This document shows positions 1-62,639 of a stretch of DNA of 64,000 bases, piece after piece. The notes under the pieces were generated by a model, which worked only from the letters and a program-made list of their open reading frames with translations, did no database searches and was not told the origin of the DNA. Both the position numbers and the translations under genes were made by a program. The stretch is from Lysobacteraceae bacterium. Lineage in GTDB: Bacteria; Pseudomonadota; Gammaproteobacteria; Xanthomonadales; Xanthomonadaceae. Location: NCBI GenBank assembly GCA_028868545.1, contig JAGWUF010000001.1, forward strand, positions 26,204 to 90,203. The letters run 5' to 3'. The first letter of the stretch is position 1, and every line of letters begins with the position of its first letter.

Positions 1-632
1 GGCTGCGCGGCCCGGTTGGCACCGCGATCGAGCTGCTGGCCGGCATCCCCTCGATCATCTACGGCATGTGGGGCTTTTTCATCCTGATGCCGGTGATGCG
101 CGAGCTGCTGATCCCGTGGATGGACGAACACCTGGGCCCGCTGCCGGTGATCGGTACGCTGTTCCGCGGCCCGCCGATCGGCGCCGGCATGCTGACATCG
201 GGCTTGGTGCTTTCGATCATGGTGATTCCATTCATCGCCTCGACCATGCGCGAGGTGTTCCTGACCGTGCCGACCCGGCTGAAAGAGTCGGCCTACGCGC
301 TGGGTGCCACCAAATGGGAAGTGAGTTGGGACATCGTGCTGCCCTACACCCGTTCGGCGGTGATCGGCGGCGTGTTCCTCGGCCTTGGCCGCGCATTGGG
401 TGAAACCATGGCGGTGGCCTTCGTGATCGGCAACAGCGTGACCTTCACCGCCTCGCTGCTGGAGCCTTCCACCACCATCGCCGCACTGATCGCCAACGAC
501 TTCGGCGAAGCCACCGAAACCTATCGCTCCGCGTTGTTGTTGCTGGGCTTCGTGCTGTTCATGGTCACCTTCGTGGTGCTGGCGCTGGCACGCATGATGC
601 TCAGCAGCCTGGCGCGCAAGGAGGGCAACTGA
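1..632 (+). CDS. pstC: Phosphate ABC transporter permease PstC (5'-truncated by window edge)
   Basis: Frame is open from the window start (ELLAGIPSIIYG...); EAA-loop-like segment LKESAYALGAT and GRALGETMAV motif; stop overlaps the pstA start. Confidence 0.95.
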   Translation, partial: LRGPVGTAIELLAGIPSIIYGMWGFFILMPVMRELLIPWMDEHLGPLPVIGTLFRGPPIGAGMLTSGLVLSIMVIPFIASTMREVFLTVPTRLKESAYALGATKWEVSWDIVLPYTRSAVIGGVFLGLGRALGETMAVAFVIGNSVTFTASLLEPSTTIAALIANDFGEATETYRSALLLLGFVLFMVTFVVLALARMMLSSLARKEGN

Positions 633-1495
633 TGAACACCGCATCCGCATCCTTGCTGCGTCGCCGGAAACTGGTCAATGCCGTTGCGACCACGCTGGCC
701 TCTGCCGCCGCCGTGTTCGGGCTGCTGTTCCTCGGCTGGATCCTGTGGACGCTGGTGGCCAAGGGCATTGGCCACTTGAATCTGGCCCTGCTCATCCAGG
801 ATCAGCCCGCACCGATGGAATCCGGCGGCCTGCGCAATGCCATCGTCGGCAGCCTGCTGATGTGCGGCATCGGCGTGCTGATCGGCACCCCGCTGGGGAT
901 TGCCGCCGGCACCTGGCTGGCCGAAGTGGGCGGACACAGCCGGCTGGGGCTGGCGGTACGCTTCGTCAACGACATCCTGATGTCGGCGCCGTCGATCGTG
1001 CTGGGCCTGTTCGTGTATGCCGCCTTCGTGATGAACACCAACGGCAAGTTCTCGGCGTTCGCCGGCGGGCTGTCGCTGGCCTTCATCGTGTTGCCGGTGG
1101 TGGTTCGCACCACCGACGAAATGCTGCAGCTGGTGCCGGTACAGATGCGCGAAGCGGCGTTGTCGCTGGGCGTGCCGCAATGGAAGGTGACCTTGCAGGT
1201 GCTGTATCGCAGCGCCCTGCCCGGCATCGTCACCGGCATCCTGCTGGCGCTGGCACGCATCAGTGGCGAAACCGCGCCACTGCTGTTCACCGCCTTCGGC
1301 AACGAATTTTTCAGCCTCGACATCACCGGCGCCATGAGTGCGGTGCCGCTGACCATGTACAAATTCGCCGGCTCCGGCTTCGAAAACTGGGAACAGCTGG
1401 CCTGGGCCGGCGCCCTGCTGATCACCTTGTTCGTGCTGGCCATCAGCCTGCTGGCCCGTGCCATCCTCCTGCGCAATCGCGTTACCCATGAATGA
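632..1495 (+). CDS. pstA: Phosphate ABC transporter permease PstA
   Basis: Hydrophobic permease with [19 protein letters not shown] and [13 protein letters not shown] motifs; lies between pstC and pstB. Confidence 0.95.
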
Positions 1496-2327
1496 CTTCC
1501 GGACCATTCCGATGCATGACGCCCATTTCAACACCGTGCACGCGCTGCAAGATGCCGCCACGGCCACCCCACCACCCGTGAAGCTGTCCGCACGCGGCCT
1601 GAATTTCTGGTACGACAAGTTCCATGCGGTGAAGAACATCGACCTGGATGTGCCCGAGAAACGCGTGACCGCGCTGATCGGCCCGTCCGGCTGCGGCAAG
1701 TCCACCCTGCTGCGCGTGTTCAACCGCATCTATGCCCTGTACCCGAAGCTGGTCGCCACCGGCGATATCCGGCTGGATGGCGAAAACATCCTGGCCCCGG
1801 ACTATTCCGTGAACCGCCTGCGCAGCAAGGTCGGCATGGTGTTCCAGAAGCCGGTACCGTTCCCGATGACCATCTACGAAAACGTGGCCTACGGCATTCG
1901 TCATCACGAAAGATTGTCGAAGGCGGAGATGGATGCGCGGGTGGAGGAGGCACTGCGTCAGGCAGCGCTGTGGGACGAAGTGAAGGACAAGCTGAAAGAC
2001 AGCGGGCTGGGCCTGTCCGGCGGCCAGCAGCAGCGCCTGTGCATCGCCCGTGCGGTGGCACTCAAGCCGGACGTGCTGTTGCTGGACGAACCCACTTCGG
2101 CGCTGGATCCGATTTCCACCGGCCGGATCGAACAACTGATCGAAGATCTCAAGCAGTCGTTCACCATCATGATCGTCACCCACAACATGCAGCAGGCCGC
2201 ACGCGTGTCCGATTACACCGCCTTCATGTACCTGGGCGATCTGATCGAACACGGCGCCACCGAGCAGATTTTCTCCACCCCGGTCAAGCAGCAGACCGAG
2301 GACTACATCACCGGGAGGTTCGGCTGA
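1488..2327 (+). CDS. pstB: Phosphate ABC transporter ATP-binding protein PstB
   Basis: Walker [10 protein letters not shown], signature [14 protein letters not shown], Walker [13 protein letters not shown]-terminal [10 protein letters not shown]. Start could be 1488 or 1512. Confidence 0.96.
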
Positions 2328-3031
2328 TGAACGAACAGCACAATCACATCGTCAAAAGCCACGACGAAGAACAGACTGCCCTGCGCGACAGCCTGATCCG
2401 CATGGGGCAGCTGGCGGCCAGCCAGCTGGATGCAGCGCTGGATGCGGTGGCCCGCCGCGACGAGGCGGCCGCGCGCCGGATCATCGCCGCCGACGATGCC
2501 ATCGATCAGCTGGAGCAGCAGATCAACCACGACGTGATCCGCCTGATCCAGCGCGGCCCGCTGGCCAGCGACCTGCGCGTCATCCTCGCCGGCTTGCGCG
2601 TGGCCTCGGACATCGAACGCGTCGGCGATTATGCGGCGAACATCGCCAAGCGCTCGCTGGTGCTGAACCAGTCGCCGCCGCTGGCACAGACCCGCGGACT
2701 GAATGCGCTCGGCCGGTTGGCGGCGCAGCAGTTGCGCGATGTCCTGCAGGCCTATCTGCAGCGCGACGGCGAGGCCGCCCAACACGTGCGGGAGCGCGAT
2801 GCCGAGCTGGACACGCTCTACACCGGCATGTTCCGCGAACTTTTGACTTACATGATGGAAGACCCGCGCGCCATCACTGTCTGCACCCACCTGCTGTTCA
2901 TGGCCAAGAACCTGGAGCGCATCGGCGACCACGCCACCAATATCGCGGAAAACCTGTGGTTCCTGCTGCATGGCGATGCCCCCCTGCCGCCGCGCGACAA
3001 ACGCGACGACAGTTCGGCCGCTTCCAGCTGA
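2327..3031 (+). CDS. phoU: Phosphate signalling regulator PhoU
   Basis: Two PhoU repeats (DIERVGDYAANIA; NLERIGDHATNIAE); ATG overlaps the pstB TGA. Confidence 0.95.
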   Translation: MNEQHNHIVKSHDEEQTALRDSLIRMGQLAASQLDAALDAVARRDEAAARRIIAADDAIDQLEQQINHDVIRLIQRGPLASDLRVILAGLRVASDIERVGDYAANIAKRSLVLNQSPPLAQTRGLNALGRLAAQQLRDVLQAYLQRDGEAAQHVRERDAELDTLYTGMFRELLTYMMEDPRAITVCTHLLFMAKNLERIGDHATNIAENLWFLLHGDAPLPPRDKRDDSSAASS

Positions 3032-3037
3032 ATGCAG

Positions 3038-3091
3038 AACCCGCCGGGAATCGCGTCGCATCCGTTGGCGGGTTAGGATGGGCTTTCATCC
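3038..3091 (+). other. Two adjacent inverted repeats between phoU and the RiPP precursor gene
   Basis: AACCCGCC (3038-3045) pairs with GGCGGGTT (3067-3074); GGATG (3076-3080) pairs with CATCC (3087-3091). No U-tract follows. Confidence 0.5.
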
Positions 3092-3109
3092 CGACCCGCG
3101 AGGCAACCC

Positions 3110-3547
3110 ATGGCACAGCCCAACAAACCCTCTCTTCCGCTGATGCTGGCCGGTGCGGCCGTGGCGGCGGGTGCACTGTTCTCGATGCAGGCAATGGCGC
3201 ACGGCTATCTGCAGGACAGCGGCCAGGCCAAGCCCACCGCCAGCGAAGGCAAGTGCGGCGAAGGCAAATGCGGGGCGGGAATGAAGCAAGGCAAGGCACC
3301 GGCGAAGAACGCCAATGCCCCGGCTGCGCATCACGCATTCGGTGACCTCGACACCGACAAGGACGGCCGCATCTCGCGCAGCGAATTCGCCGCCGCGCAC
3401 GGCGGCAAGGACACCATGTTCCCGAAGATCGACAGCAATGGCGACGGCTTCATCAGCAAGGAAGAATTCGATGCCCACCATGCCGCCATGGGCAAGGCCA
3501 TGAGCGAAGGCAAATGCGGCGAGGGCAAGTGCGGCGGCAAGATGTAA
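3110..3547 (+). CDS. Secreted HvfA-like RiPP precursor (four EGKCG motifs) containing two EF-hand loops
   Basis: Signal peptide ending AMA; SEGKCGEGKCG near both ends; EF-hand loops DTDKDGRISRSE and DSNGDGFISKEE; directly upstream of DUF692 and DUF2063 genes. Confidence 0.85.
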   Translation: MAQPNKPSLPLMLAGAAVAAGALFSMQAMAHGYLQDSGQAKPTASEGKCGEGKCGAGMKQGKAPAKNANAPAAHHAFGDLDTDKDGRISRSEFAAAHGGKDTMFPKIDSNGDGFISKEEFDAHHAAMGKAMSEGKCGEGKCGGKM

Positions 3548-3553
3548 GCCGGC

Positions 3554-4378
3554 ATGGTTGAACCGCTGCCCCAGCGCAGCGCGGGCTTGGGCCTGCGCCG
3601 TGCGCTGCTGGATGAATTGATCGGGGCGCCTGCGGGCGCCTTCGATTTTCTGGAATGCGCGCCGGACAACTGGATCGGCGTCGGTGGCGCGCTCGGCGAG
3701 CAGCTGGAAACGCTGACGGCGCGGTATCCGCTCAGCTGCCACGGCCTGTCGCTGTCGCTGGGCGGCCCCGACCCGCTGGATCAGGCGTTCCTGCGCCAGA
3801 CCCGCGACTTCCTCGACCGCCACCGCTGCGCGCTCTACAGCGAACACCTGAGCTACTGTTCCGCCAACGGCCATCTCTACGACCTGCTGCCGCTGCCGTT
3901 CACCGACGAAGCGGTGACGCACGTCGCCGCACGCATCCGCCAGGTGCAGGACGCGCTGGGCCGCCGGATCGCGGTGGAAAACGTCAGCTACTACGCCGCG
4001 CCCTACCAGCAACTGTCCGAAATCGATTTCGTCGCTGCGGTGCTGGCCGAAGCCGGCTGCGACCTGCTGCTGGACGTGAACAACGTCTACGTCAACGCGA
4101 TCAACCACGGCTACGACGCGCGCGCCTTCATCAAGGCGATGCCGACGCAGCGCATCGCCAGCTACCACGTTGCCGGCCACTTCGACGAAGCCGACGACCT
4201 CAAGATCGACACCCACGGCACGGCGGTGAAGGACGACGTGTGGTCGCTGCTCGGCTACGCCTACGCCAGCCACGGCGTGCGCCCCACCCTGCTGGAACGC
4301 GACTTCAACTTCCCGCCGCTGCCGGTGCTGCTGGACGAAGTGGCGCGCATCCGCGCGCTGCAGGCGGCAGCGCCATGA
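3554..4378 (+). CDS. DUF692-family multinuclear non-heme iron oxidase (MNIO, HvfB/BufB-like)
   Basis: GLGLRR start, [57 protein letters not shown] and LLERD are all characteristic of DUF692. Confidence 0.93.
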
Positions 4379-5124
4379 GCGCGCTGCACGATCAGCTGCA
4401 CGCGCTGGCCGCGCACGTGCGCGACCCGGTCGCGCACGCCGGCCCGCCCGGCATCGAGGATCGGCGGCTGGCGGTCTATCGCGAGCTGGTGGCCAACAAC
4501 CTCGACGGCCTGCTGGCCGGCACCTTCCCGGTGATCCGCAGGACTCTGGGCGATGCCGACTGGCAGGCGCTGCTGCACCGCTTCCTCGTCGGCCACCGCA
4601 GCGAAACCCCGCTGTTCACCCGGCTGGGATTGGAGTTCATCGCCTTCCTCGAAGCCGCGGAAGAGCCCGCGCGGCCGTGGCTGACCGAGCTGGCGCATTA
4701 CGAATGGGCCGAGCTGGGCCTGCAGCTCAGCGATGCCGCGGCACCGCCGCACGTTCCCGACGGCGACCTGCTCGACGGCGTGCCGCTGCTGTCGCCGCTG
4801 GCCTGGCCGCTGGCCTACGTCTGGCCGGTGCACCGGCTCGGCCCGGACTGCCAGCCCGCCGAACCGCCGCCCGTTCCGACGCTGGTGCTGCTGCGCCGCG
4901 ATCCTGGCGGCCGCGTCCATTTCTCGCTGCTGTCGCCGCTGCTGTACCGGCTGCTGGCGCTGATTGGTGCCGACGACGGGCGCAGCGGCCACGCGCTGCT
5001 GCGCCAGCTGGCGGAGGAAGTCGGCCACCCGGATTTCGACGCGTTCCTCGGCGAAGCACTGCCGATGCTGGAACGGCTGCGCGCCGAGGGCGTGCTGCCG
5101 GGCACCGCGCCGCCGACGCGCTGA
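4375..5124 (+). CDS. DUF2063-family MNIO partner protein (HvfC/BufC-like)
   Basis: [13 protein letters not shown]...FPVIRRTLG and [10 protein letters not shown] motifs; ATGA overlap with the DUF692 stop. Confidence 0.88.
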
Positions 5125-5165
5125 AAGCGATGTGGGCCAGCAGGCCGCTCTGCTAGGCTTTGCCG

Positions 5166-5858
5166 ATGACCGATACGCAAGATGTACCCGCCTTCGCGGC
5201 GATGGCCGCGCGCTTCCGCGGCTACCTGCCGGTAGTGGTGGATGTGGAAACCGGCGGCTTCGACTGGAACAAGCACGCCCTGCTGGAAATCGCGGCGATT
5301 CCGCTTGAACTGGATGCGGCCGGCCACTACGTGCCGGGCGAAGTCGCGCACGCGCACATCGCCCCCGCGCCCGGCACCAGCATCGACCCGAAGTCGCTGG
5401 AGGTCACCGGCATCAAGATCGGCCATCCGCTGCGCGGCGAGGTGGACGAGCGCAGCGGGCTGGACGCGATCTTCGTGCCGGTGCGCGCGGCGCTGAAGAA
5501 GCACGGCTGCCAGCGCGCCATCCTGGTGGGCCACAACGCCCACTTCGACCTCAACTTCCTCAACGCCGCGGTCGCTCGCGTGCAGCACAAGCGCAACCCG
5601 TTCCACCCGTTCAGCGTGTTCGACACGGTGACGATGGCCGGCCTGGCCTACGGCCAGACCGTGCTGGCACGCGCGGCGATGGCTGCCGGGCTGGGCTGGG
5701 ACCCCAGCCAGGCGCACTCGGCGGTGTACGACACCGAACAGACCGCGAAGTTGTTCTGTGCGATCGCAAATGCATGGCATAGGCCAAATCCCGCAGCGCA
5801 GGGCGGTTCGTCCGCATCGAGCGCGGGGACAATCGGCGCCATGGATGGCGCCGATTAG
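5166..5858 (+). CDS. rnt: Ribonuclease T (DEDDh exoribonuclease) with an atypical C-terminal tail
   Basis: [37 protein letters not shown] and [12 protein letters not shown] motifs. About 25 extra residues follow the NAW terminus I would expect. Confidence 0.95.
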
Positions 5859-62114: not shown

Positions 62115-62639
62115 TCACTTCTTCGCAGGCGGTGCCGGCGGCGCAGGGGGCGCGGGCGGCGGCATCTGGCCCATGCCGCCATGCCGCATGCCCTGTCGCA
62201 TGCCATGCATCATCGGACCACACACCTCGTGCAGTTTGGCGAATTCCGCGCGGCTCAGCTGGCCGTTCTTGTCGGTATCGGCCTTGTCGAAGCATTCGGC
62301 CTGGCGCGCCGCACGGCGTGCCTGCATGTCTTCGGGGGTTCTGTCGCCTGCGTCCTGCCCATGCATGCGCCCGCCCGCGGCACTCTTGCGCCACGCCGCC
62401 AATTCATCGGCGCTCAGCTTGCCGTCCTTGTTGGTGTCGATCTGGTCGAACTTCTCGGCCAGCCGCGGGAACTTGGCCGCTTCCTCCTTGCTGATCATGC
62501 CATCGCCATTGGCATCCATCCGCAGCATCGGCGCATTCGGCTTGGCTTGCGGTGCAGGCGGCCCGGCCACTTGCGCCAGTGCCATCGTGGAGGCCAGCCC
62601 GGCGGAGACCGCCAGCGTCATCAACAACAATTTGTTCAT
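62115..62639 (-). CDS. Secreted EF-hand calcium-binding protein
   Basis: Signal peptide ending ALA; loops DANGDGMISKEE, DTNKDGKLSADE and DTDKNGQLSRAE; Met/Gly/Pro-rich tail. Confidence 0.85.
   Translation of the reverse strand: MNKLLLMTLAVSAGLASTMALAQVAGPPAPQAKPNAPMLRMDANGDGMISKEEAAKFPRLAEKFDQIDTNKDGKLSADELAAWRKSAAGGRMHGQDAGDRTPEDMQARRAARQAECFDKADTDKNGQLSRAEFAKLHEVCGPMMHGMRQGMRHGGMGQMPPPAPPAPPAPPAKK

Follow-up and report, generated by a model that had tools for sequence, protein, structure and literature searches.

What does a bacterium make with a cassette in which a putatively exported protein carries a pair of EF hands between two copies of a cysteine motif, and which metals would such a protein bind? 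This question is raised by a 64,000-nucleotide stretch of DNA from a Lysobacteraceae bacterium (the whole stretch is called the window here), in which a precursor gene is tightly linked to a DUF692 gene and a DUF2063 gene (Table 1). The first-pass annotation had read the three genes as an MNIO RiPP cassette of the HvfABC type, with two SEGKCGEGKCG motifs, two EF-hand loops between them and His/Met patches. All of these features are present, the patches being AHHA at residues 72-75 and AHHAAMG at residues 122-128 of the precursor.

Table 1. Features of the cassette, with nucleotide positions in the window.
Feature	Position (nt)	Strand	Size or residues	Remarks
hvfA-type precursor gene	3110..3547	+	145 aa	EfhP-family EF-hand protein, EGKCG flanking the EF pair; ORF and translation
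Sec-type signal peptide region	3110..3199	+	aa 1-22 or 1-30	Sequence reading
N-terminal S-EGKCG-EGKCG	3242..3274	+	aa 45-55	Predicted MNIO target; Cys49 and Cys54
Folded EF-hand pair	3326..3511	+	aa ~73-134	Pfam and AF2
EF loop I	3350-3385	+	aa 81-92	D81-E92, DTDKDGRISRSE
EF loop II	3431-3466	+	aa 108-119	D108-E119, DSNGDGFISKEE
C-terminal S-EGKCG-EGKCG	3503..3535	+	aa 132-142	Predicted second MNIO target block; Cys136 and Cys141
hvfB, MNIO (DUF692) maturase	3554..4378	+	274 aa	Pfam and NCBIfam
hvfC, DUF2063 + RRE-type partner (PME-type 1)	4375..5124	+	249 aa	Pfam and NCBIfam

The two downstream genes bear out the assignment to the HvfABC type, as both exceed the cut-offs of the corresponding NCBIfam equivalogs. 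HvfB exceeds the cut-off of 360 on NF003818 with 427.9 bits, matches Pfam PF05114 (MbnB_TglH_ChrH) at 1.8e-104 and aligns with a DUF692 protein of H. somni (PDB 3BWW, E 5.1e-72), conserved motifs such as LLERDF included; on the BufB equivalog (NF050167) it reaches 280.1 bits, below the cut-off of 310. It is the sole MNIO of the genome, encoded 7 nt downstream of the precursor gene (3547 to 3554). The start of hvfC overlaps the hvfB stop by 4 nt (ATGA), and HvfC scores 268.1 bits against a cut-off of 142 (NF050145), exceeds the Pfam cut-offs for DUF2063 (3.5e-23) and NGO1945_C (1.6e-26), and matches PDB 3DEE (E 1.2e-5).

The precursor exceeds the cut-off of the NCBIfam model for the HvfA family (NF050137, KCGExKCG_twice; 36.1 bits against 19.5, in two matched stretches) but scores 25.7 bits on the HvfA equivalog NF050188, for which the cut-off is 95; it is therefore a member of the HvfA family, though not an HvfA orthologue. 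At the DNA level the two SEGKCGEGKCG stretches share 91% identity over 32 nt (3242-3273 versus 3503 onward; repeat family D1), and the second ends 4 residues before the end of the protein. In a six-frame scan of the whole 2.65-Mb genome, which is 96% complete, KCGEGKCG occurs twice, both times inside the precursor ORF, and no further substrate with this motif was found.

Between the motifs, Pfam detects EF-hand_5 (1.7e-13; 49.8 bits, cut-off 25.9), and EF-hand_1, EF-hand_6 and EF-hand_7 likewise exceed their cut-offs. That the two loops form a folded domain, as first proposed, agrees with their canonical sequences and with a confident AlphaFold2 fold: pLDDT exceeds 90 for residues ~78-130, with block means of 87-96 for residues 81-130, helices span residues 77-80, 90-96, 101-107 and 117-134, and the two Cys tails are disordered or predicted with low confidence. 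Foldseek returned no PDB match at E <= 0.001, owing to the disorder of half of the model; the weaker matches were all ordinary EF-hand pairs, polcalcin Phl p 7 being the best (target TM-score 0.70). NCBIfam matches of the precursor to XopAW, LanM, transaldolase and deiodinase models lie far under their cut-offs and were set aside as EF-loop similarity.

Cysteines flank the EF pair on both sides, a layout that we call a sandwich, in 118 of the 120 top database homologues. When 58 homologues were aligned, E46, G47, C49-C54 and E133-C141 were almost invariant and H97 was invariant, while H124 and the Met that follows were conserved beside the C-terminal block. This architecture is beyond chance, given a motif that is unique in the genome and its conservation in more than 100 database proteins. 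The two arms vary in detail: database homologues have 1-4 Cys on the N side and 1-6 on the C side, and the loci found in genomes have 0-6 and 0-8, so that one side may be missing, as on the N side of one locus (L051) and on the C side of the whole EfhP clade. On the N side, the linker is 26 residues long in the window protein, within a range of 5 to 49; the spacer between the loops has 15 residues in the window precursor and in 116 of 118 homologues. The gene order phoU-hvfA-hvfB-hvfC-rnt is kept across Lysobacteraceae genera, and of 200 genomes sampled from the family 99 carry the locus, as do all 5 from the genus, the window genome among them. In an HvfB tree, proteins of the EfhP type are nested within the sandwich subfamily, their clade being the sister of the Thermomonas/Pseudoxanthomonas clade in which the window falls.

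EGKCG motifs joined to EF hands beside a DUF692 gene, which the first-pass annotation had singled out, are thus found in databases and are not unique to the window. Chimeras of EGKCG and EF hands next to MNIO genes have been described (PMC12452194), and "HvfA family" is the name under which NCBI already lists such proteins. The window precursor falls within the published definition of a Buf_EGKCG|EF-hand_5 chimera: a hydrophobic N-terminal segment, an EGKCG domain that is short and unstructured, and a pair of EF-hand_5 domains, encoded directly upstream of MNIO and PME-type 1 (DUF2063) genes. Its C-terminal EGKCG block goes beyond that definition, in which the EF hands are C-terminal and no later EGKCG block is mentioned. 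The supplementary text of PMC12452194, as far as available, likewise holds no description of a second EGKCG block C-terminal of the EF hands, and the sandwich layout is not stated as a subfamily rule in the EfhP or MNIO/captophorin literature that we found. Besides copper homeostasis, PMC12452194 also raises a role of the chimera in Ca2+ homeostasis or signalling.

A homologue has moreover been studied at the bench. One locus in our set (L082) is EfhP (PA4107) of P. aeruginosa, identified by an exact match to the published efhP primer and by the published loop numbering; the window precursor is 38% identical to it over 136 aa (E 7e-19), and the EfhP locus clears the NCBIfam HvfA and HvfB models that the window cassette clears. 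Both proteins have a Sec-type N-terminus with an aligned leader-like motif, two EGKCGEGKCG motifs and two canonical DxDxDG loops with an identical 15-residue spacer, matching Table 1 of PMC9132961, and in both cases hvfB and hvfC homologues follow directly (PA4106, DUF692; PA4105, DUF2063). They differ in that both Cys pairs of EfhP are N-terminal (residues 47-56 and 70-79); a Cys-free tail (…ANGKPMPAGLF…) replaces the C-terminal EGKCG block, and the conserved AHHAxM is missing. Both the Ca2+ binding and the physiology of EfhP have been characterised (PMC4053335, PMC9132961, PMC11559002): the protein binds Ca2+ selectively with a Kd of 13.7 uM, changes conformation on binding and is predicted by SignalP 5 to be periplasmic. 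Its phenotypes, namely Ca2+-dependent virulence, regulation of Fe uptake and H2O2 resistance, have been explained by Ca2+ sensing without PTM, and Fe sensing has been suggested for its four EGKCG repeats (PMC11559002). The earlier remark that no characterised EF-hand-containing MNIO product was known therefore needs qualifying: a homologue has been, for Ca2+, but it is one with both Cys pairs at the N-terminus, and it has been characterised as a Ca2+ sensor only. Because the architecture is described in PMC12452194 and EfhP has been studied, it is not an unknown one, and the window cassette is an ordinary further member of a catalogued family with one undescribed detail, the sandwich layout.

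What the MNIO would do to the cysteines can be judged from related systems. The oxazolone-thioamide chemistry at first ascribed to the EGKCG cysteines is outdated, the HvfB product now being assigned as 5-thiooxazole (PMC13097082; from the original laboratory, 10.64898/2026.07.17.739211). The products of HvfA, FonA and NgoA are Cu-binding 5-thiooxazoles, and FonBC modified a two-repeat but not a one-repeat peptide, tolerating only small residues after the Cys (PMC13097082). The window cassette resembles these "captophorin" systems (HvfABC/oxazolin of H. influenzae, FonABC/fontiphorin and NgoABC/gonophorin) in its HvfB and HvfC equivalogs, its EGKCG target and its Sec signal peptide; by extension, its product may share their 5-thiooxazole chemistry and Cu(I) binding. 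It differs in that the HvfA, FonA and NgoA precursors consist of repeats without a folded domain, and in that many such clusters include DoxX, which a search did not find in the window genome; as this genome is 96% complete, the absence of DoxX is not proven. The bufferins of Caulobacter vibrioides (BufA1/BufA2 with BufBC(D)), which carry thiooxazoles and buffer periplasmic copper, share with the window cassette an MNIO with a DUF2063-RRE partner and a small, folded, Sec-exported precursor. Their precursors have another fold (DUF2282 / 6-12 Cys) and another Cys context, and Pfam found no DUF2282 match in the window precursor, which places it outside the bufferins.

The surroundings of the cassette say little about copper. 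Its neighbours, pst-phoU and rnt, are housekeeping genes, and neither a metal regulator nor a copper gene is adjacent to it; nothing in the context therefore points to copper. Neither a sigma-70-like promoter nor a terminator was found around the cassette in a scan of 2800-5400, where the one terminator-like site lies inside hvfB and shuffled sequences yield more, and the phoU-hvfA spacer has no greater tendency to fold than its shuffles (z -0.02). Two RNA libraries, both from one study, contain contigs identical to hvfA from 3100 or 3110 to 3535, although RNA-library contigs can contain DNA; in the RNA-library runs X17 and X18 only short or chimeric fragments that stem from relatives were found.

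On this evidence, and by analogy with the characterised systems, the locus is probably an hvfABC-type ("captophorin"/oxazolin-class) RiPP cassette whose EfhP-family, secreted two-EF-hand precursor is modified and binds Cu. If it works as its homologues do, an HvfB-HvfC heterodimer would bind the precursor in the low-Ca2+ cytoplasm. The contact would probably be a conserved leader-like segment, F24-x-M-x-x-M-x-x-G32-Y33, which overlaps the end of the signal peptide and aligns with HvfA precursors with and without EF hands (Y33 is invariant and G32 almost invariant among the 58 aligned homologues). Using O2, the enzyme would turn Cys49, Cys54, Cys136 and Cys141 into 5-thiooxazoles, a shift of -4 Da per Cys and -16 Da in all. 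These predicted targets, two on each side of the EF pair as the first reading had them, each lie within a double EGKCG repeat, the minimal unit for FonBC. Processing of the C-terminal block by the MNIO is an assumption, since this block lies ~100 residues from the putative leader and behind a foldable domain. Sec would then export the precursor, and a signal peptidase would cut it after A22 or A30. In the periplasm, to judge from EfhP, its EF pair would bind two Ca2+ and adopt a compact fold with two flexible thiooxazole tails, and these, like HvfA, FonA and the bufferins, would bind Cu(I). With Cu(I) on its tails, the protein would buffer or sense periplasmic copper while reporting or depending on Ca2+.

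Several steps of this scheme could be read differently. The signal peptide proposed at the outset stands as a Sec-type N-terminus (K6, then a hydrophobic stretch, L9-F24), but its cleavage site, as read from the sequence, is ambiguous between AGA22|LF and AMA30|HGY; the former aligns with the site in relatives and is for that reason at least as likely. Were the hydrophobic segment instead an uncleaved signal anchor, the EF pair and the Cys tails would be held on the periplasmic face of the inner membrane. PMC12452194 does term the segment a predicted transmembrane helix, TMHMM and SignalP 4 predicted the same for EfhP, and a run of 16 residues is long for a signal peptide. We nevertheless consider a tether unlikely: a renewed prediction for EfhP with SignalP 5 gave a cleaved signal peptide, small-residue sites exist at AGA22 and AMA30, relatives with a longer N-terminus show clear AxA sites ahead of the F-x-M...G-Y motif, and bufferin precursors undergo cleavage and Sec export. 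As to the metal in the loops, conserved ligand positions 1, 3, 5, 9 and 12, together with the example of EfhP, suggest that the window protein binds Ca2+ selectively and at micromolar levels. A lanthanide-binding protein in the manner of lanmodulin, likewise a periplasmic protein with a compact EF-hand array, would fit the unusually short spacing of the loops (15 residues versus 24 in calmodulin) and the weak profile matches to LanM (PDB 6MI5, 5.2e-7; NCBIfam NF053806, 21.1 bits). This is extremely improbable, as the LanM cut-off is 135 bits, the near-identical loops of EfhP bind Ca2+ selectively, and the window protein carries Cys motifs and has two loops where LanM has four. Pro at loop position 2 is typical of LanM, whereas the window protein has T or S there.

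The published view of EfhP would make the window protein a pure Ca2+ sensor, its cysteines unmodified or sensing Fe or redox state, with hvfBC acting elsewhere or dispensable. Besides the EfhP phenotypes and the proposed Fe sensing, many EfhP-like genes of the P. fluorescens group fit this view in having no hvfBC within 6 kb. It is very unlikely to hold here, where the genome's single MNIO directly follows the one gene with KCGEGKCG, different genera retain the gene order A-B-C, and the Cys motifs are the exact sequence modified by characterised HvfB-family enzymes. The first-pass annotation had gone furthest in the other direction, proposing that Ca2+-dependent folding joins the two ends of the protein; the N- and C-terminal thiooxazole pairs would then form one Cu site, and Cu binding would depend on calcium. 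In favour of such a clamp are the retention of both Cys blocks in 118 of 120 close homologues, the conformational change of EfhP on Ca2+ binding, and the invariant H97 with the conserved H124 and Met; moreover, EF-hand pair domains generally have their first and last helix packed next to each other. Yet the number of Cys per side varies, down to none, as does the length of the N-side linker. In the AlphaFold2 model a helix of 4 residues leads into the domain and one of 18 leads out of it, so that the points at which the two Cys motifs leave it are unequally far from the loops; both tails are disordered or modelled with low confidence, and EGKCG peptides seem to aggregate and to take up Cu stochastically. 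These observations leave the claim unsupported, and we find the clamp quite unlikely. We are similarly sceptical of its form for the sandwich subfamily, in which the Ca2+-loaded EF pair would scaffold both thiooxazole pairs, H97 and AHHAxM into one defined Cu(I) site, with EfhP a derived protein that has lost the second arm. If this scaffold did exist, it would mean calcium-switched capture of periplasmic copper by a protein of direct Ca/Cu cross-talk.

The probable reading as a modified, copper-binding member of the EfhP family brings together two literatures that have remained unconnected: work on EfhP, a Ca2+ sensor with puzzling EGKCG repeats, and work on MNIO enzymes and captophorins, with their copper thiooxazoles, concern one family. 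As a member of this family the window cassette is clean and minimal; it comes from a non-pathogenic, Thermomonas-like wastewater bacterium and has one MNIO, one substrate and Cys blocks that flank the EF pair. Either this cassette or an orthologue in a Thermomonas or Pseudoxanthomonas that can be cultivated would lend itself well to studying whether an EF-hand member is modified, whether the enzyme gains access to a core behind a foldable domain, and whether Ca2+ and Cu binding affect each other. Answers from such systems would alter how the phenotypes of EfhP are read.

The first-pass annotation had described an MNIO/DUF2063 cassette whose precursor holds an EF-hand pair between two EGKCGEGKCG motifs, and the ORF translations, together with Pfam and NCBIfam scores, confirm it. 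The precursor, HvfA, exceeds the Pfam cut-offs for EF-hand_5, _1, _6 and _7 and scores 36.1 bits on the NCBIfam HvfA-family domain model (KCGExKCG_twice; cut-off 19.5); the two stretches of hvfA encoding its Cys motifs are 91% identical as DNA. The product of hvfB, the maturase gene, matches Pfam MbnB_TglH_ChrH at 1.8e-104, scores 427.9 bits on the NCBIfam HvfB equivalog (cut-off 360) and hits the H. somni DUF692 structure 3BWW (E 5.1e-72) with conserved motifs aligned. The product of hvfC, the partner gene, scores 268.1 bits on the HvfC equivalog (cut-off 142). As translation of the whole 2.65-Mb genome in six frames places KCGEGKCG in the hvfA ORF alone, and HvfB is the only MNIO encoded in that genome, the cassette is real and goes beyond a chance pattern. 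The Metapseudomonas resinovorans genome (G002, locus L067) carries three full-length MNIO genes and one weak, stop-interrupted match.

Features of the hvfA-hvfB-hvfC cassette (window numbering; aa, precursor residues)
Feature	Position	Strand	Remarks
hvfA-type precursor ORF	3110-3547	+	145 aa, ORF translation
Sec-type N-terminus of precursor	K6, then hydrophobic run L9-F24	+	from sequence
First S-EGKCG-EGKCG	aa 45-55, nt 3242-3274	+	from sequence
EF loops	D81-E92 and D108-E119	+	two canonical 12-residue loops between the Cys motifs
Second S-EGKCG-EGKCG	aa 132-142, nt 3503-3535	+	stop four residues later
hvfB	3554-4378	+	starts seven nt downstream of hvfA
hvfC	4375-5124	+	DUF2063 + NGO1945_C; ATGA overlap with hvfB

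A search of 5.8 billion proteins (E <= 1e-3) gave 1,072 matches to the precursor, many of them from Thermomonas and other Lysobacteraceae. In 118 of the best 120, the EF pair is flanked by Cys at either end, with one to four on the N side and one to six on the C side. EGKCG dominates in these 118 (548 of about 650 Cys contexts), and most end 3-4 residues past the last Cys. In 77 of the 118, loop I is preceded at a distance of exactly 5 residues by an additional Cys within HEGGCGM; the window protein and the sequences closest to it instead read AAHHAFG at this place, with two His and no Cys motif (alignment A1, proteins P0001-P0123). Invariant positions of the alignment include Y33, the loop ligands, F93, H97 and F104, and H124 and both EGKCG pairs are near-invariant.

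Scanning a single genome for each species gave 80 loci. The order phoU-hvfA-hvfB-hvfC-rnt is kept in Thermomonas, Pseudoxanthomonas, Lysobacter, Luteimonas, Vulcaniibacterium and others, and the longer arrangement of pstC-pstA-pstB-phoU, hvfA-hvfB-hvfC and rnt (window 1-5858) is kept across many Lysobacteraceae genera (L003-L016, L026, L038, L041, L043, L047, L055). Within the window's family, a precursor homologue is present in 99 of 200 sampled genomes and 40 of 64 genera (E <= 1e-12), and in all five sampled genomes of the window's genus, its own included. Given this breadth and conserved synteny, the cassette has the appearance of a long-established part of the chromosome passed on by vertical descent, not of a mobile gene cluster.

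The scan loci fall into two types. In the 'sandwich' type, found in Lysobacteraceae, Rhodanobacteraceae, a few Pseudomonas, Thiobacillus and others, Cys blocks flank the EF pair on both sides. In the 'N-only' type, seen in Pseudomonas, Stenotrophomonas, a single Lysobacter MAG (L044) and a single Pantoea-labelled genome, between one and three EGKCG pairs precede the EF pair, and a Cys-free tail (…ANGKxMPxGLF…) follows it. A maximum-likelihood HvfB tree gathers 13 of the 14 N-only loci in a single clade (support 92/93). This clade has as its sister group (99/99) the Thermomonas/Pseudoxanthomonas sandwich clade to which the window belongs, and lies nested among further sandwich lineages; the fourteenth locus, L057, which was paired with an hvfB upstream of its gene, lies elsewhere. 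Because of this nesting, the sandwich would be the older and broader form under midpoint rooting, which does not establish the root.

The closest studied relative of the window protein is EfhP (PA4107), a Ca2+ sensor of P. aeruginosa (38% identity, E 7e-19). Using the published EfhP EF loop I sequence as query, we retrieved a P. aeruginosa-type locus, L082, which includes an exact copy of the published efhP deletion primer; in its ORF the loops span 88-99 and 115-126, the positions given in Table 1 of PMC9132961, and EGKCGEGKCG stands at aa 47-56 and 70-79. Homologues of hvfB and hvfC follow, in agreement with the report that efhP is apparently operonic with PA4106 (DUF692) and PA4105 (DUF2063) (PMC4053335). 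EfhP passes the NCBIfam HvfA-family model and PA4106 the HvfB equivalog. EfhP binds Ca2+ selectively (Kd 13.7 uM), exposing a hydrophobic surface, is periplasmic by SignalP 5 prediction, and influences virulence, H2O2 resistance and Fe-uptake regulation (PMC4053335, PMC9132961, PMC11559002). Its 'four repeats of EGKCG' were noted and a role in Fe sensing was suggested, with no reference to the MNIO (PMC11559002).

Other scan loci depart from the cassette layout. At loci of the P. fluorescens group (L017, L018, L020, L021, L024, L027-L031, L033) and at L079 and L081 there are two kinds of orphan gene: EfhP-like genes with EGKCG repeats, usually one pair, and two EF hands, for which no hvfB or hvfC lies within the fetched flanks, which reach up to 6 kb per side and at some loci run off the contig; and very short HvfA-like ORFs (73-90 aa) with one EGKCGEGKCG, no EF hand and no maturase nearby. 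In Bacteroidota and unclassified MAGs, L058, L063 and L074 have 4-5 EF loops with KCG repeats on both sides and no hvfBC in their flanks; the N-termini of L058 and L063 resemble lipoprotein signals (…LSSCG and …LNSCG), that of L074 is plainly hydrophobic, and L063 is an internal tandem duplication.

Residues F24-S-M-Q-A-M-A-H-G-Y33 align with a motif, F-x-M-x-x-[LM]-x-x-G-Y, that HvfA precursors have in common whether or not they carry EF hands. Where relatives have a longer signal peptide, the motif comes after a clear AxA site, which makes putative cleavage at AGA22/L the family-consistent choice, with AMA30/H as an alternative; AGA22/L also aligns with the PrediSi-predicted EfhP site at residue 29. 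The AxA at aa 28-30 (window 3176-3199 covers aa 23-30) is specific to Lysobacteraceae, other lineages having D/Q/P-L-S at the aligned place. Cleaved at AGA22/L, the mature protein would keep the F24-Y33 motif, a candidate for the element that HvfC recognises.

An AlphaFold2 model built from a 58-sequence alignment is confident over the EF-hand pair (block-mean pLDDT 87-96, aa 81-130), with helices at 77-80, 90-96, 101-107 and 117-134 and with short strands within each loop. Residues 1-72, first Cys block included, fall below pLDDT 50, and the C-terminal Cys block reaches about 54. In its folded part the model is similar to ordinary two-EF-hand domains (top match polcalcin Phl p 7, target TM-score 0.70). 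The inter-loop spacer is 15 residues, as in 116 of the 118 homologues, versus 24 in calmodulin. The first reading proposed that Ca2+-dependent folding could bring the two ends of the precursor together. We consider this improbable: the number of Cys per side varies freely, one side can be missing (the N side in L051, the C side in the EfhP clade), the N-side linker can be as short as 5 or as long as 49 residues, and in the model the N side enters through a 4-residue helix adjoining loop I while the C-side block follows an 18-residue helix. Taken together, the comparisons speak against a site that both Cys blocks must form jointly.

The oxazolone-thioamide chemistry first invoked for the cassette has since been revised, the HvfB product now being assigned as 5-thiooxazole (Gadgil et al., PMC13097082; then the Rosenzweig laboratory, 10.64898/2026.07.17.739211). 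FonBC requires two EGKCG repeats, leaving a one-repeat peptide unmodified, and its products bind Cu(I), apparently in a disordered manner and with aggregation (PMC13097082). By analogy with the homologues described above, the precursor would be modified in the cytoplasm and exported by Sec; in the periplasm, Ca2+ would fold the EF pair and the thiooxazole tails would bind Cu(I). With Ca2+ at cytoplasmic levels, little metal should occupy the pair, so the domain is perhaps loose there, which may let the enzyme reach both Cys blocks and Sec export the chain.

The window genome (66.5% GC, 117 contigs, 96% complete) is Thermomonas-like by best matches, and several studies' metagenomes from wastewater, bioreactors, sludge and soil contain near-identical DNA. 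RNA-library contigs from two runs of one sludge study are identical to 3110-3535 and 3100-3535, thus covering hvfA alone, and end inside the last EGKCG repeat; hvfB and hvfC appear there as short, diverged pieces only. This is a weak hint of hvfA transcription, as DNA carry-over is possible in such libraries. Other high-depth contigs of these runs join EGKCG repeats differently and are probably hvfA-like genes of other organisms. DoxX was not found in the genome, no copper or regulator genes flank the cassette, and no promoter or terminator is predicted in the 78-nt phoU-hvfA spacer. The window encodes one more secreted EF-hand protein, at 62115-62639 (-), with three EF loops (Pfam EF-hand_5 1.8e-19). 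Its tail (…CGPMMHGMRQGMRHGGMGQMPPPAPPAPPAPPAKK) is rich first in Met/His and then in Pro, so that here too EF hands are combined with a tail of abundant soft-metal ligands. The flanking genes read, from their translations, as tesB-like and aminoacyl-transferase-like.

The cassette is thus a correctly recognised, ordinary member of a catalogued family. A Buf_EGKCG/oxazolin profile was built in 2025, and a second precursor type was described, comprising a predicted transmembrane helix, a short unstructured EGKCG domain and two C-terminally fused EF-hand_5 domains; the MNIOs of EF-hand_5 precursors are coloured in the networks, and a possible role in Ca2+ homeostasis or signalling besides copper homeostasis is proposed, citing EfhP (PMC12452194). 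Many such proteins are named 'HvfA family oxazolone/thioamide-modified RiPP metallophore' by NCBI and UniRef. The text and text supplements of PMC12452194 make no mention of a C-terminal EGKCG block. What is added to this record is small: a bilateral Cys layout as the rule of the subfamily, the conserved gene order, and the position of EfhP nested inside that subfamily. Whether EF-hand members are MNIO-modified copper binders for which Ca2+ matters is a question worth asking of the family and is not specific to this window.
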